Below are positions 23,694 to 45,909 of a DNA stretch of 64,000 bases, piece by piece (positions within the stretch are counted from its first letter, which is position 1; the number at the start of each line of letters is the position of its first letter). A program made the translations under genes and the position numbers. This stretch comes from an uncultured virus (IMG/VR IMGVR_UViG_3300011867_000002) (taxonomy: Duplodnaviria > Heunggongvirae > Uroviricota > Caudoviricetes): positions 1-64,000 of IMG/VR virus record IMGVR_UViG_3300011867_000002. The stretch is one strand, 5' to 3'. Below the pieces are notes generated by a model. That model did no database searches, was not told the DNA's origin, and saw only the letters and a list, made by a program, of their open reading frames with translations.

Positions 23694-24068
23694 TTACGCT
23701 TCGACAATTTCACCCATGTTCGACACCACTTGGATGGCACGATCATCATAGAGGACAATCATGCCGGGGTCTTTCTTGCAGGTGACAGTCAGTGCTTGGC
23801 CGAGGATATTTGCAGTCCATCGGGTAATCATTTCACGCTGAACTTCGTTGGCTGCTTCGTTCTCGCTACCAACACGAGCGGTCATGATGCGCACTTCGAC
23901 ACCTTCATCCAGCATGCGCTTTACAAACGACACCATCTTTTCAATGGGCGGTCCAATCTTGTCCACACCATCGCCACTATTGTAGTAAGCGAGCGTACCA
24001 TCCAGATCGACACCGACCCAGCCTTTCTTCAGTCCTGTTTCTTCGAGTGCCATACGTAGATGGTTCAT
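23694..24068 (-). CDS. HAD-family phosphatase (polynucleotide kinase phosphatase-like)
   Basis: VDLDGTLA motif I, TAR motif II, K, YDD motif IV. Confidence 0.85.
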   Translation of the reverse strand: MNHLRMALEETGLKKGWVGVDLDGTLAYYNSGDGVDKIGPPIEKMVSFVKRMLDEGVEVRIMTARVGSENEAANEVQREMITRWTANILGQALTVTCKKDPGMIVLYDDRAIQVVSNMGEIVEA

Positions 24069-24090
24069 GTATTATTCCTTTACTGTGCGG

Positions 24091-24119
24091 AAAAAAGGAC
24101 CACCCCGAAGGGTGTCCTT
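24091..24119 (-). terminator. Intrinsic terminator closing the ncRNA candidate
   Basis: AAGGACACCC-UUCG-GGGUGGUCCUUUUUU. Confidence 0.8.
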
Positions 24120-24120
24120 G

Positions 24121-24845
24121 AATCAATGGTAGCCGTGGTCGAAAACTCCATTGAGATGCTGGACGCATCCAGTAGTATCCTCTCGACTAATCTTCACCTC
24201 CCCGCTCGGCGGGGCATCCCAGTCGATGAAGTCTACAGTCTCTGCGGGTTCAGTGACTGGCCTTGCGGCATGGAGACGATACTAGCGGCTGCACACAGAA
24301 CGAAGACCGCGACAGGTGCGATCGTAGGCACCCCCTCCTTGCGGTTAAGGGTGCGCTATGTTCTTGCCATCGACACCGCTGGTAAGGGCGATATGTCAGG
24401 CAATGTACAACTAACCGTATTGATGGTTTCCAATCACCACTACGGCCGTACGGATTTACGAGGCTGGAAACCCCGAGCGATTTACCCCGTCCAGAGGGAC
24501 GGAGGACACAAGTCCGTAACGCATGCATGCTACAAGACGAAGCACTCTACTCTAGTTATTTCAGTGGAAGGGACACCTAGTAACTAGCAGAAGCAATCCC
24601 AGAGCAACTTCGGGAGCCTTCGTCTTTCGTGGGGTCTTCCCCAATCATCTTGTCTCCAGTGCTGGATACACTGGCGTCGCACCCATAACGTCTATCACGG
24701 AACACGCCGTGGCGTTACAGTTTACGCACAACGAAGATGACTCCGGCTTTCACGGATCATCAGGTAGCGAGGAATTAGCGGGTATAGTTCATTGTCGGTC
24801 CCTTTATGTTCGTTAAGGAAAACCGGTTTGCCTCTACTAACATAC
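24121..24845 (-). ncRNA. Candidate large (~720 nt) structured noncoding RNA
   Basis: No credible ORF in a gene-dense genome; more than a dozen local and long-range helices; GCAA/GAAA loops on the minus strand; TATG promoter-like site upstream and terminator downstream. Confidence 0.7.
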
Positions 24846-24886
24846 CATACAGCGTTGCCAAGTAAAAAGTTACATTACTGCTGTGC

Positions 24887-25198
24887 TTACTTCATGTGGT
24901 CCGGTCGTGCTCGGATAGCCTTCAAGAGTTCGTCCGATTCCCGGATTTGAATGTAATCGTCGAACTTACCAAACACATCAGGGTGGCTGGCTTCTTGGGT
25001 GATCGAGACACTCAGTTGTGAAGCACGGGCATCGAGCACGAGTGCGTAGGCACGCTCCTGGATTTCTTCTAAGCTACAGATCGTGCCTCGTTTGGCTTCC
25101 CGAGTGCATTCAATGCGTTCTGCTTCTTTCTTACCGTGCGGCGTCAGAAACAGACTGATGTACACGAACAGTGGCTTAACGAACTTCTTAATTGCCAT
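24887..25198 (-). CDS. Hypothetical protein
   Basis: 103-aa ORF overlapping the queC-like stop, AGGAG RBS. Confidence 0.65.
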   Translation of the reverse strand: MAIKKFVKPLFVYISLFLTPHGKKEAERIECTREAKRGTICSLEEIQERAYALVLDARASQLSVSITQEASHPDVFGKFDDYIQIRESDELLKAIRARPDHMK

Positions 25199-25967
25199 CG
25201 GTAATTACTCCTTCTGCAAATGGTTCTTCGATGAGCAACAATTCCTCGGACTCATCCTTCCTCTTTATGTTGCGCATCTTTTCAATGAAATGGTGGCTAT
25301 ACGGTGCACCGTACTTTTTCTGGTACATGTGGAAGGTGCCGGCGCTAGTGATACAGGCCGCACATTTTCCGCAGGATTTCAAGGTACCGCCAGCACCATC
25401 GTCCCAGTGGAGTTTTTTGCCGTCCCGCCACCATTCGGGAATTTCGCACACCCAAACGTGTTGGACAGCGCGCACATCGATCTGGTGCAAGATATCGACC
25501 TTTCGCTCCACCTTCAATGGAAAGACGACAGGAATTGATCCTTGCTTTGCAAACATCTGGATGTTATCCCACGTGTTGGCGATATACGGAATGTGACAGG
25601 CGATCTGGTCCCCGGCGACATACCCGATGGCCAGTTCAGAGTGACGGGTGTGATCCGACACTTGGAGCGCACCGATAATCCACATGGGGGCTTGCAAGAA
25701 ACCTCGATCCGGCATGTCACCCCCAAAGAGATGGCCAAGCTCAACTTTATGGTCCCGCAGCACATGGTTGCCGGTTTTCTTTTCTAAGGCTTTGATAATC
25801 TTGCGGCGCGCCGCCAACTCTTTGGCGATCTTGTCTGGCCCTTGCGATCCTTTCACATAGAGGACCTCCACATCGCCTTTTTCCAAATAAGTCTGGAGCA
25901 TGTACGTAGAATCCAGGCCGCCCGAGAACAACATCAAGGGGACTTTCTTTTCTTCTTCTCTTTTCAT
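25188..25967 (-). CDS. QueC-like PP-loop ATPase
   Basis: LMLFSGGLDS PP-loop; WVCE...CGKCAAC zinc motif. Confidence 0.8.
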   Translation of the reverse strand: MKREEEKKVPLMLFSGGLDSTYMLQTYLEKGDVEVLYVKGSQGPDKIAKELAARRKIIKALEKKTGNHVLRDHKVELGHLFGGDMPDRGFLQAPMWIIGALQVSDHTRHSELAIGYVAGDQIACHIPYIANTWDNIQMFAKQGSIPVVFPLKVERKVDILHQIDVRAVQHVWVCEIPEWWRDGKKLHWDDGAGGTLKSCGKCAACITSAGTFHMYQKKYGAPYSHHFIEKMRNIKRKDESEELLLIEEPFAEGVITDGN

Positions 25968-42720: not shown

Positions 42721-45700
42721 TTACTTCGACGGCATCGCCATGTTACCCGTGGCTTTCACCAAGGTCACATCGAACGACGTCAGCACCGGAATGCCGTATG
42801 CCGTTGCCATGACACGGATCGTGGCACGGACAGTACTTACCGCGGCGATGTAGTTCCACACACCGTTGTCGGTAGGAATTTGCACCGGACCCACGGTAGG
42901 TCCCGATGGCAACGGGTCGATGAACACTTCGACTTTGCCAGTGGGGTCGTTCTTCAGGTCAACCGTACCGGAGATCGTGGCTTTGTTGCCCGACACTTTG
43001 GAGCTGGTCAACTTGATTTCCGGTGGAATGCCCACCGGCGCCGTGCTATCGAGGTCAGCCGCGCGCGGGTTGCCTGCGATGGTCACCACCGAGAACACCA
43101 CACCACCCAAGAAGTTCGCACTCTTGCCGCCTGCGTTGGTCATGTACACCACTGGCGCAGCGTAGTTACCCGGCGTCAGCTGTGTCCACTCGACATACCA
43201 GGTGCCGTCTTCGTTGATGATCAGTGCCTTTTCTGGCAGCGCCGATGCTTTGCCAGGATTGGTACCGATAGCAACGCTGGCGAAACCGCTCAAAGGGGCT
43301 TCGCTATACGTACCCGACAGACGCAGTTTCGTACCATCGAGGGTCTGGCCAGTGATTTGGCCTTTTGGTACCGGAACGTACGAATTCAGCTGCCACGCGC
43401 CGATGTCAGGTGCTGGGCCGCGGTTACGTCCCGTCATGTCATCGGTTGAAATCGCGCTATCCGACGCTTTACCGATGGCAGGGCCTCCTGCTTTTGGTTT
43501 GTAGTTCGAACCTGCCGTTTGCACGATAGCAGCTTCGGTCGAGACCGTCCAGCCCGCCCACTGGGTAGTCAGGGCCGTGTCGGTCAAGTTCGCGCGCATC
43601 TTCAGCTTGGTGCTGTCGACCGTAACTGGTGCTGGGCCACAACCGATGAAGATGTTATCGCTAATTTCGCCGGAGTCGTAAGACGCACCGTGACGACCTG
43701 CCAGGGTGCCTAGTGCGCCGCCGCGCCGCACGAAGGTATTGCGGACGACGTACGCCGAGTTTACGAGGAAGAACTTGGCTTTGCCTTTTTCTTGGACGAA
43801 CAGGTTGTCCGTCACGTAAGACGAGGCGTTGTACTCGCCATTGCTGAAGATGTAGTTCGCCTCGTCCGACAGTTCGTTCAGGAAGAAGTTTCCTTTGAAC
43901 GGACCAGGGAAGAACTGCGCTTGGCTACTATTGTTGGCCGTCATGTAGCAGCAAGTCGTACCAGTGGCAGTGGAACCCACGTCCATGGCCTTGATACGGA
44001 AACCTTGGAAGGTAATGCCATTCTTGACCGTGAAGCTGTTGCCTGGTTTCAACATGATTTCCATGCCGTCGTCGTACCAGTTGAGCGCTTCGCCAGCATG
44101 GCGGTCAAGCATACCCAAGCCAGGTGCCGGTTTAATTACCACCAGCGCGGTACCGTTAGGCGCCAAGGACAGGCTGCTCAGGTCGCTCGCGTGAATGTAG
44201 TTCGTTACGTACGCGTGGATCACTTCACCAGCAGGCACGTTGGTGCGGGCACTCATCCACGTTTGGAACGCTTTGATGTTGGCGTGGGTCTGACCCTTAC
44301 CGATCATCTGCACGTTGACGCCTGACTCCACTGGAGTAGGCGTCTTGACCACTGTGAACGCCGCACCGCCCGTGGCGCGGGCCGAGGTGCCTGCATTGTT
44401 GGTGAAGAGAATGTCCGGTGCCAGATAGTTGCCTGGCGTGACGCCATAGAGGTACGCCACGAACTTCTTCGTCACGGTATCGAAGTACACCGTGGTGGCG
44501 TTGGCAATCTCGACAGCACCGTCTGGCGTGCCACTGACAGCAGCACTGATCTTGGCACTGAGTGGGACATTTTCCACCGTACCGAAGAACGTTACCGTAT
44601 CGCCCACCACGTACTGTTTCTGAATCACCGCAGTCGGAATGACAGGCGTTTCGATGAAGAACGGCGCGCCGCCCGTTGCTGCGGCACCATCGCCACCGTA
44701 GTTCGAGAAAATCGCTTGTGGCGACTTGTAGTTACCGCCATCGATGTTGGCGAACACCGCTTCCCAGGTGGTCGCGGTTTTCATTACCGCCGCTTTCGAT
44801 GCCACCACCGTACCATCGGTTTTGACCAGCGTTACCGAACCACCGAAAGGATCACCTTCAACGGTACCGGTCACGGTCACGGTTTGGTTGACGATGGTCG
44901 TTCCCGTGATGGTGCCCGTAGGTGGAGCAGGCAGTGGCTGCGCCGTTACCTGGAATGGACCGACGTCAGGTACTTGGCCACGGTACTTACCGAACATACC
45001 GAAAGTGTTGACGGCGGCCGGGCTACCTTTACCAATCAGCGAACTACCCGCTGGCAGACGCAAGTCCGTTGCCACATCGCGTGCCAGTTGCTCTGTGGTC
45101 ATCACCGTGAAGCCGGATGGATACGGCGTGGTCATCGCGGTGTCGGTGTAGTTGTTGGCAATCTTGGCATTAGCCGACGCTGGCAGACCCAGTGCTGGGG
45201 TTGGGCCGCAGCCGAGGAAGATATTGTCTTTCAGCGAAAGGTCAATACCCGTGGTCGCAGGGTTGCCAGCAGCCGTTCCTGTACGAAGGAAGACGTTCCG
45301 CTCCACCACGGCCTTGTAGTTCAGTGCAATCGACAGTGCCTTGCCGGCGGTGTGGATGAAGATGCAATCCGCCACCGTACCGGCATAGGTGTACTCGCCA
45401 GAAGTAAAGACACGGCATTTGGAGCCCACCGCTTCCGACAAGAAACGACATTGCCGGATTTGGCTAGGACGGTTGGCAGGATTACCTGCCAGCATGAACG
45501 CACTGCGCACAGTGACGTCGTCGTCCACACCACCCGTGACGAAGATACGGAAACCTTCGAGCACCACGCCGTGGCGGAAGGTACCCATCCAGTTACTGGT
45601 CGCAGGAATCGTCACGCTCAGAGTGATACCCCCGCCAGCGTAGTGCTGCGGCGTGCCGTCTGGGGTGATGTCGTTGATACCCAGGCCAGGTGCTGGACGG

Positions 45701-45909
45701 ATCAAGCAATAGTGAGTGAAGTCAGACTCGGCCGTCTCAAAATTGTAGTTCCAACCCAGGCCATTGTACATCGGCAAGTTGTCGTGCACCTCCGCGATCA
45801 CCATCTGATCGTTGGTCACGAGCTTCTGGGTTTTGAGCCAGGGCAAGAAATCGCCAAAATTGGCGAAATCTTTTCCAGCACCAATACTCTTTTTAACAAT
45901 TGTTGGCAT
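42721..45909 (-). CDS. Large tail-fibre/receptor-binding-like protein with duplicated beta-helix and Ig-like modules
   Basis: Two copies of IG.G...(R/K)PAPGLG...DNIF.GCGP.P...PD(V/I)G.(F/W)Q; repeated GNY.(S/A)P..N units. Confidence 0.7.
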   Translation of the reverse strand: MPTIVKKSIGAGKDFANFGDFLPWLKTQKLVTNDQMVIAEVHDNLPMYNGLGWNYNFETAESDFTHYCLIRPAPGLGINDITPDGTPQHYAGGGITLSVTIPATSNWMGTFRHGVVLEGFRIFVTGGVDDDVTVRSAFMLAGNPANRPSQIRQCRFLSEAVGSKCRVFTSGEYTYAGTVADCIFIHTAGKALSIALNYKAVVERNVFLRTGTAAGNPATTGIDLSLKDNIFLGCGPTPALGLPASANAKIANNYTDTAMTTPYPSGFTVMTTEQLARDVATDLRLPAGSSLIGKGSPAAVNTFGMFGKYRGQVPDVGPFQVTAQPLPAPPTGTITGTTIVNQTVTVTGTVEGDPFGGSVTLVKTDGTVVASKAAVMKTATTWEAVFANIDGGNYKSPQAIFSNYGGDGAAATGGAPFFIETPVIPTAVIQKQYVVGDTVTFFGTVENVPLSAKISAAVSGTPDGAVEIANATTVYFDTVTKKFVAYLYGVTPGNYLAPDILFTNNAGTSARATGGAAFTVVKTPTPVESGVNVQMIGKGQTHANIKAFQTWMSARTNVPAGEVIHAYVTNYIHASDLSSLSLAPNGTALVVIKPAPGLGMLDRHAGEALNWYDDGMEIMLKPGNSFTVKNGITFQGFRIKAMDVGSTATGTTCCYMTANNSSQAQFFPGPFKGNFFLNELSDEANYIFSNGEYNASSYVTDNLFVQEKGKAKFFLVNSAYVVRNTFVRRGGALGTLAGRHGASYDSGEISDNIFIGCGPAPVTVDSTKLKMRANLTDTALTTQWAGWTVSTEAAIVQTAGSNYKPKAGGPAIGKASDSAISTDDMTGRNRGPAPDIGAWQLNSYVPVPKGQITGQTLDGTKLRLSGTYSEAPLSGFASVAIGTNPGKASALPEKALIINEDGTWYVEWTQLTPGNYAAPVVYMTNAGGKSANFLGGVVFSVVTIAGNPRAADLDSTAPVGIPPEIKLTSSKVSGNKATISGTVDLKNDPTGKVEVFIDPLPSGPTVGPVQIPTDNGVWNYIAAVSTVRATIRVMATAYGIPVLTSFDVTLVKATGNMAMPSK

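Follow-up and report, generated by a model that had tools for sequence, protein, structure and literature searches.

To our knowledge, only a handful of bacterial and phage non-coding RNA (ncRNA) classes longer than 500 nucleotides (nt) are known. RNase P, the group I and group II introns, OLE, GOLLD and ROOL have all proved to be ribozymes or else unusual molecular machines or assemblies. Here we describe a locus of an uncultured jumbo phage, recovered as the 221,460-bp IMG/VR record IMGVR_UViG_3300011867_000002, positions 1-64,000 of which form the window (all coordinates refer to it unless stated otherwise). We consider it likely, from comparative sequence analysis, that the minus strand from 24841 to ~24092 is the gene for an ncRNA of ~750 nt with four or five structured domains, and this RNA is probably a new class of large structured phage ncRNA, so far represented by two genomes and a few environmental fragments.

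Among described RNAs, the predicted transcript most resembles GOLLD and ROOL in kind, although it is unrelated to them. Many GOLLD members exceed 800 nt, are encoded by phages or prophages, and increase in expression during lysis, and GOLLD and ROOL form homo-oligomeric cages, as described in a preprint (bioRxiv 10.1101/2024.12.08.627333), the GOLLD cage being a 14-mer and that of ROOL an octamer. Like GOLLD, the RNA predicted here would be a very large, multi-domain and heavily base-paired phage ncRNA without known function, and it resembles ROOL as a large ornate phage or prophage RNA for which the same preprint gives no known protein partner or function (bioRxiv 10.1101/2024.12.08.627333). 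GOLLD is often located near tRNA islands (bioRxiv 10.1101/2024.12.08.627333), whereas ARAGORN found no tRNA or tmRNA gene in the window, nor anywhere else in the 221-kb record, and while the 3′ region is described there as the universally conserved part of GOLLD, it is the 5′ half (domains I and II, below) that is more conserved at this locus. ROOL differs in that its Rfam model does not match the locus, which has no tRNA neighborhood and belongs to a jumbo phage encoding a chimallin homolog. Listings and abstracts of the literature on phiKZ-like phages describe no large structured RNA.

The predicted gene occupies most of an 818-nt gap (24069-24886) between two minus-strand open reading frames (ORFs), 24887-25198 and 23694-24068. 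A rough ORF map of the genome had selected a plus-strand ORF of 175 amino acids (aa), 24060-24587, as a gene; once it is discounted, the gap is the largest gene-free stretch of the window. On the minus strand the gene order is a 525-aa protein, a QueC-like protein, a 103-aa protein, the gap, a 124-aa HAD-type protein and two further uncharacterized proteins. We found one complete relative, IMGVR_UViG_3300034025_000120 (224,429 bp, with terminal repeats), in which the gene order is identical, the gap measures 787 nt (locus L003 4340-5126) and the BLASTN alignment runs straight through it. Compared between the two genomes, the gap and its flanking genes gave the following values (nucleotide identity; differences at the three codon phases; lengths of the alignment gaps in nt):

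RNA gap: 67.9%; 80/83/86; 2, 1, 1, 1, 4, 1, 2, 17, 2, 1, 17, 2, 1 and 3
103-aa gene: 73.7%; 19/15/48; 1 and 26, at the 3′ end, where the gene of the relative runs 9 codons longer
HAD-like gene: 62.7%; 40/22/78; 3
QueC-like gene: 67.1%; 66/49/137; 6 and 9

The gap is therefore conserved at 67.9% against 62.7-73.7% for the flanking genes, with invariant blocks of up to 27 nt, and its differences are spread evenly over the codon phases. Ten of its 14 alignment gaps are of 1 or 2 nt and break the frame, and every sense frame is interrupted by 8-17 stops in both genomes. The 103-aa protein, for its part, is 73% identical to the copy of the relative, with differences in excess at the third codon position. 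The plus-strand ORF 24060-24587, antisense to the RNA, has no Pfam match and shows no coding selection, and we regard it as spurious: it is 41% identical in aa to the antisense ORF of the relative, but all six frames give 39-41%, and it counts 5 synonymous against 42 nonsynonymous codon differences, as opposed to 30 against 25 in the real 103-aa gene. A 92-aa sense ORF was also discarded, having only six residues in common with the relative. Compared in this way, the two genomes show that the region is under purifying selection, and not for a protein. The initial annotation of the locus, made from the letters of the window, had called it the longest stretch without a credible gene and non-coding; both statements stand, the former with the antisense ORF set aside.

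What appears to be selected is an RNA fold read on the minus strand. On the two-sequence alignment, RNAalifold predicted 194 pairs; none is broken, and in 32 both partners have changed. When the partners were slid by 1-3 columns as a control, only 0-5 pairs retained double changes. Because RNAalifold favors covarying pairs, we also shuffled the columns within conservation classes:

Minus-strand consensus energy: -178.2 kcal/mol; shuffles -117.2 ± 6.4 (40 column shuffles)
Minus-strand double changes: 32; shuffles 14.8 ± 3.8, maximum 28 (40 column shuffles)
Plus-strand consensus energy: -144.2 kcal/mol; shuffles -106.3 ± 5.9 (40 column shuffles)
Plus-strand double changes: 26; shuffles 15.2 ± 3.3, maximum 22 (column shuffles)

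Coding controls of ~800 nt from the same genome pair reached consensus-energy z-scores of only -1.0 to -2.6. In an independent test, which uses no covariation term, each homolog was folded alone, and we counted the pairs at aligned columns to which both folds gave a probability above 0.5:

RNA gap, minus strand: 74 common pairs, 19 double changes, 12 G-U cells
RNA gap, plus strand: 16 common pairs, 2 double changes, 0 G-U cells
Four coding controls: 0-18 common pairs, 0-1 double changes, 0-5 G-U cells

The 74 common pairs form 13 helices, among them the following:

24284-24273/24184-24173, minus strand: helix of 11 bp with 4 double changes
24586-24581/24558-24553, minus strand: helix of 6 bp with 4 double changes
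24259-24251/24244-24236, minus strand: helix of 8 bp with 3 double changes

Against dinucleotide shuffles, the minimum free energy (MFE) of the single sequence at 24120-24845 had a z-score of -2.3 on the minus strand (0 of 100 shuffles as low) and -1.7 on the plus strand (4 of 100), and the full gap 24069-24886, with 20 shuffles, gave -2.76 and -1.36, respectively. This energy comparison, which the initial annotation had proposed as a check, came out in favor of structure, though modestly when taken alone. The comparison of homologs shows that predicted base-pairing of the minus strand is conserved through compensatory changes, a covariation signal that rests on two genomes and three partial variants. 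The nested complementary segments listed initially are present and reappear as helices in both the MFE fold and the consensus fold of the minus strand, the two GCAA loops and the GAAA loop are found on the minus strand as described, and the densely structured minus-strand RNA that had been proposed on these grounds is upheld by the independent folds and their coding controls.

Candidate transcription signals bracket the structured region, and both had been pointed out in the initial annotation, as a TATG-containing promoter-like site and a UUCG-loop terminator:

24868-24841, minus strand: promoter-like motif TTTTTAC-N17-TATG, with 33 of 36 aligned bases identical in the relative
24119-24091, minus strand: intrinsic terminator with a 9-bp G+C-rich stem, a UUCG loop and U6; a terminator consensus scan finds it at 24114-24101
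Record positions 142894, 125173, 120106, 117649, 111861 and 24868, minus strand: sites matching TTTTTA[AC]-N15-17-TATG in a pattern count

The conserved promoter-like block lies directly past the stop codon of the 103-aa gene. Its pattern, TTTTTA[AC]-N15-17-TATG, is found at 6 sites of the 221-kb genome where 0.5 would be expected (at most 2 in 30 first-order Markov simulations), all of them on the minus strand and four outside the rough ORF map. A search for enriched 7-mers upstream of ORFs returned only AT-rich words and words like a ribosome-binding site (RBS), and a fuzzy match with the entire conserved block turned up no further copy. In phiKZ, middle promoters are described as carrying AAanTTACc centered near -24, and late and some middle promoters as carrying TATG, the final G of which is the start site (PMC4666361). 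The predicted site at 24868-24841 matches this phiKZ-type middle promoter layout, with a TTAC-containing element ~21-24 nt upstream of TATG in a phage that encodes a phiKZ-type polymerase beta subunit; it differs in that the known phiKZ middle and late units drive protein genes and here the product would be a 750-nt ncRNA. As a class of candidate promoters, the TTTTTA[AC]-N15-17-TATG sites could also help to map the transcription units of the phage. At the other end, the stem of the terminator differs in the relative (GGACACCC/GGGUGGUCC vs GAGUCACCC/GGGUGACUC), with the pairing and the U6 tract kept, and a U-run follows the stem on the minus strand only. From the G of the promoter-like site (24841) and the U-run near 24092, a transcript of ~750 nt would be expected by analogy with phiKZ.

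The architecture that we predict for this transcript, from 5′ to 3′, is as follows:

24840 to ~24769, minus strand: 5′ leader, weakly structured
24805-24799, minus strand: Shine-Dalgarno (SD)-like AAAGGGA, with the same block in the relative
24792-24775, minus strand: mini-ORF ATG..TAA (MNYTR*), starting 6 nt past the SD-like AAAGGGA
24768-24529, minus strand: domain I, the most conserved part, with a 59-nt core holding only 3 differences
24768-24764/24533-24529, minus strand: closing helix of domain I (consensus fold)
24741-24763, minus strand: invariant 23-nt block CUGAUGAUCCGUGAAAGCCGGAG, a junction strand plus small hairpin, identical in both genomes
24741-24734/24651-24644, minus strand: helix of domain I with 2 double changes, predicted independently in both homologs
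24643-24630, minus strand: hairpin GGGG-AAGA-CCCC of domain I (consensus fold)
24626-24614/24547-24534, minus strand: 13-bp helix of domain I (consensus fold)
24586-24581/24558-24553, minus strand: variable arm of domain I with 4 double changes, predicted independently in both homologs
24528-24412, minus strand: domain II, with the long invariant blocks CAUGCGUUACGGACUUGUG and AAUCGCUCGGGGUUUCCA.CCUCGUAAAUCCGU
~24485-24506, minus strand: variable hairpin of domain II, its stem sequence differing among the window, the relative and the environmental contigs X2 and X3 (below), the hairpin being kept
24474-24465/24432-24422, minus strand: helix of domain II (consensus fold)
24411-24288, minus strand: domain III, with a 9-bp closing helix (24411-24403/24296-24288) including three G-U pairs, and three inner arms
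24287-24170, minus strand: domain IV, a multi-way junction closed by 24287-24273/24184-24170
24269-24260, minus strand: GCAA-loop hairpin of domain IV, with a covarying stem
24259-24236, minus strand: hairpin of domain IV with the invariant loop AACCCG in both genomes
24231-24192, minus strand: arm of domain IV, 3 double changes in the consensus-fold count
24169-24122, minus strand: two 3′ hairpins; each homolog folds hairpins here, with different sequences

Most stems vary and covary, while the junction strands and a few helices are invariant. In domain III, five helices are common to the independent folds, with 3 double changes; the closing helix of domain IV has 4 in its 11-bp independent-fold stem and 5 in the consensus-fold count, and the hairpins of domain IV have 1, 3 and 1 in the independent folds. 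Few pairs are counted at 24122-24169 because the MAFFT alignment is poor there. Not all pairs of the consensus fold deserve the same trust, as the predicted pairs 24805-24800/24099-24094 occupy the U-run of the terminator and are doubtful. In the leader, the relative (L003 4404-4437) has the same SD-like block followed by MTMKQNY*, so that the mini-ORF is 5-7 codons long. In both genomes it stops at the same aligned TAA, and the first domain I helix begins 6-8 nt farther downstream; the encoded peptide is not conserved. The SD-like site and the mini-ORF might hint at ribosome engagement or at translation-dependent folding. We had also considered a group II domain-V-like hairpin, noticed by eye, which was dropped, and a hammerhead core or C/D-box k-turn around a CUGAUGA motif, which was rejected, as no Rfam hammerhead matched at E≤10 and no GAAA follows the hairpin.

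We then compared the locus with known RNA families and searched for homologs. With cmscan against Rfam 15 (4227 families), the whole window had no match at gathering score and the stretch 23800-25200 none at E≤10, and the only match in the relative was a chance CRISPR-repeat match (E 7). The covariance models of GOLLD, ROOL, OLE, 6S, RNase P, tmRNA and the introns thus matched neither homolog in Rfam. The initial annotation had read the region as a standalone RNA of ~720 nt, possibly of a new class, and had not recognized it as tmRNA, RNase P or tRNA; its testable parts held, the predicted length being now ~750 nt and no Rfam family accounting for it. It had also proposed collecting homologs from related jumbo phages, which succeeded in part: one full relative with compensatory pairs was obtained, and the cultured phages FLC9, RP12 and RSL2 gave nothing. 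A covariance model of domain I recovered the relative at 144 bits and found nothing at E≤10 in the whole records of these three phages. Against 50,697 GenBank phages, blastn returned nothing at E 1e-5 and only chance matches of 25-35 nt at E≤10. With nhmmer, the full alignment found no paralog in all fetched loci plus the whole genome and nothing in a 10.7-kb stretch of RSL2 beside its QueC-like gene, and neither genome holds a second copy of the region.

In IMG/VR, scans anchored on proteins (the QueC-like protein, the 103-aa protein and the 103-aa alignment) led only to IMGVR_UViG_3300034025_000120. Scans with patterns from five conserved blocks retrieved the relative and chance matches inside a 341-aa ORF and inside a 131-aa ORF of a small phage, and a 19-mer of the CUGAUGAUCCGUGAAAGCCGGAG block found only the relative and one chance match inside an ORF. 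One scan with a 25-nt pattern containing an internal N is uninformative, since it missed the relative, which carries the pattern; N-free patterns from the same block did retrieve it, and scans with internal N may miss matches. Metagenomes yielded a single chance match of 24 nt, and the GTDB genomes a single one inside an 876-aa ORF. Among public sequencing runs, eight hold 6-29% of the sampled words of the region and none reaches half. From four runs, Logan contigs of 151-329 nt cover parts of the region at 90-99% identity, and these short contigs indicate that close variants occur in the environment. Contig X2 follows the window to 24480, swaps the hairpin at ~24485-24506 for a different 8-bp hairpin and then rejoins; in contig X3, all but one of the 13 substitutions and every one of the 5 deleted letters fall within 24482-24527, including C24487>T paired with the predicted partner change G24502>A; and a change at 24226, common to X2 and a further contig, X6, turns a U-G pair into C-G. 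The depth of 43.7 of the X2 contig comes from a library labeled 'RNA-Seq cDNA' that is probably DNA, and neither this depth nor the uncovered parts of the 2.1-kb stretch in the runs is evidence for or against expression.

Several observations weigh against an independent, trans-acting ncRNA. Only two full-length homologs exist in all the collections scanned, so that no R-scape-type covariation statistic can be given and the detailed fold is uncertain; the domain I model has no match in the closest cultured phages, which leaves no ready system for experiments. The single-sequence z-score of the minus strand is modest (about -2.3 to -2.8), and the long-range pairs 24506-24498/24124-24115 of the consensus fold clash with a better-supported local hairpin. 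Contigs from RNA-labeled libraries cover parts of the region, but Logan contigs cannot show ends, strand or level. A trans action through the fold is a proposal of ours, and the terminator, ending 22 nt before the ATG of the next gene, leaves room for a role in cis. The region could accordingly be a very long 5′ untranslated region (UTR) or attenuator that controls read-through of the terminator into the HAD-like gene and the two behind it, by sensing a ligand or through translation of the mini-ORF. The order of promoter, structured RNA, intrinsic terminator, RBS and gene is that of riboswitch and attenuator leaders, no conserved separate promoter lies between the terminator and the ATG, and the SD-like site with its 5-7-codon ORF is conserved a few nt ahead of the first domain I helix. 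However, known riboswitch and attenuator leaders are several-fold smaller than ~750 nt in four or five domains, no riboswitch, aptamer or other leader family matched at E≤10, and the peptide of the mini-ORF is not conserved. Moreover, terminator, RBS and ATG are just as closely packed at 26012-25991, before the QueC-like gene and behind an ordinary protein gene, and this spacing therefore looks like a habit of this genome rather than the mark of an attenuator. We regard such a leader as unlikely.

The RNA might instead be the structured 3′ part, a 3′ UTR that is possibly processed, of the transcript of the QueC-like and 103-aa genes. No minus-strand terminator lies between those at 26012-25991 and 24114-24101, so transcription entering from the QueC-like gene would run through the RNA, and the conserved promoter-like block begins just 1-18 nt from the stop codon of the 103-aa gene. 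Conservation of TTTTTAC-N17-TATG, the 12-fold enrichment of its motif class in the genome and its fit to the phiKZ layout speak for a separate start, and we judge this origin improbable; it would in any case alter only where the 5′ end comes from, not the nature of the region as a structured ncRNA. That the dense inverted repeats act as DNA, as hairpins or protein-binding sites of a replication origin or of a packaging or recombination site, would be compatible with a region that is non-coding and conserved, yet the strong asymmetry between minus and plus strands (74 vs 16 pairs, 12 vs 0 G-U cells, -178 vs -144 kcal/mol) and the directional promoter-like motif and terminator that bracket the region speak against it. 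No alignment or fold shows iteron-like repeat units, and the genome of the relative ends elsewhere, its terminal repeat aligning with the record gap 124862-125586. This explanation is very improbable. We give even less credence, to the point of holding it hardly tenable, to a self-splicing intron or other mobile ribozyme, or to a protein gene in decay. ORF-less group II introns span this size and have multi-domain folds of this kind, and the genome holds a weak group I intron-like signal elsewhere, but no intron model matched either homolog at E≤10, the flanking genes are complete, each with a start or stop of its own, and other phages carry them as separate genes, and neither genome has a second copy. 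A decayed gene would not retain invariant blocks and compensatory pairs.

For the independent ncRNA that we favor, we propose that the phiKZ-type RNA polymerase of the phage would transcribe a separate, terminated RNA from the G of TATG (24841), that this RNA would accumulate as a stable species, and that it may act in trans through its three-dimensional fold, as a scaffold, as a platform to which proteins, ribosomes or RNA bind, or possibly as a catalyst. We infer action by fold rather than by antisense pairing because conservation is concentrated in the junctions and loops and in a small set of invariant helices, most stems being variable and covarying; invariant junctions and loops held by covarying stems would be the anatomy of ribozymes and RNA scaffolds, not of antisense regulators. 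More tentatively, and with considerable doubt, this RNA may be the first representative of a new class of giant ornate RNAs confined to a rare lineage of jumbo phages that encode chimallin; the phage polymerase would produce it, and it would work as an architecture of RNA alone or of RNA and protein. It could, for example, multimerize into an assembly resembling the cages of GOLLD and ROOL or, during infection, act from the phage nucleus as a scaffold or decoy for ribosomes or for host defenses that bind RNA; ribosome engagement would be in keeping with the conserved SD-like site, the mini-ORF and an internal AGGAGG. A large folded RNA in a phage that builds a nucleus-like compartment and brings its own polymerase would raise the question of what it is needed for, and of whether it resides in the phage nucleus or in the cytoplasm. 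The RNA is open to study without culturing the phage, by in vitro transcription, chemical probing, native gels and cryo-EM.

The phage itself was assigned through its polymerase and shell protein. Its RNA polymerase beta-like protein matches PF00562 and is closest, among GenBank matches, to that of Burkholderia phage FLC9 (46.6% identity), with 33-38% identity to those of the Ralstonia phages RP12, RP31 and RSL2 and of Pseudomonas phage PhiPA3. With FLC9 as the closest cultured relative, a host among the Burkholderiales would be a guess. A homolog of the phiKZ nuclear shell protein gp054 (chimallin) is encoded at record 104663-105721 (E 1.5e-16), and Pfam Tubulin has no match in the genome. 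The initial label of a nucleus-forming-type jumbo phage is fair, because both the shell-protein homolog and the phiKZ-type RNA polymerase beta subunit are encoded. The 1062-aa product of the minus-strand ORF 42721-45909 has no Pfam family and no tblastn match among the 50,697 GenBank phage records, and the lineage is therefore far from all cultured phages.

The genes next to the RNA are the following:

25188-25967, minus strand: QueC-like protein (Pfam QueC, PHROG 1550)
24887-25198, minus strand: 103-aa protein, the upstream neighbor (ORF map)
23694-24068, minus strand: HAD-type phosphatase-like protein of 124 aa, the downstream neighbor (PHROG 1238 and PHROG 415)

The 103-aa protein has no Pfam or PHROG match, and among 5.8 billion proteins only itself and the copy of the relative were retrieved. 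As a possible partner of the RNA it offers no family and nothing in the protein Atlas search, and its AlphaFold model was not used given a pLDDT of 38. We found no functional tie of the QueC-like or HAD-like neighbor to the RNA. The HAD-like gene has tblastn matches in 18 phage records, and its ATG lies 22 nt past the U-run of the terminator. Its product, a small HAD phosphatase, is similar to the phosphatase portion of polynucleotide kinase as well (PHROG 415). The QueC-like protein is of the 7-deazaguanine pathway type and is 34-39% identical to the versions of RSL2, RSF1, FLC6 and Pseudomonas jumbo phages. Minus-strand intrinsic terminators at 26012-25991, 24114-24101 and 22728-22695 divide this region into units, and as two of them end 22-24 nt before the next ATG, the downstream genes need either read-through or promoters upstream of the terminators.

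Finally, outside the window, the largest gene-free gap on the rough ORF map is record 124862-125586 (725 nt, against 818 nt for the RNA gap with the spurious ORF 24060-24587 discounted). It is homologous to the genome end of the relative beside the terminal repeat, with 69% identity over ~800 nt, and contains a TTTTTAC-N16-TATG motif on the minus strand (record 125173-125147). On its plus strand, record 124884-125208 gives a full-length match to the Rfam group I intron model that stays below threshold (19.3 bits, gathering score 50, E 0.062).

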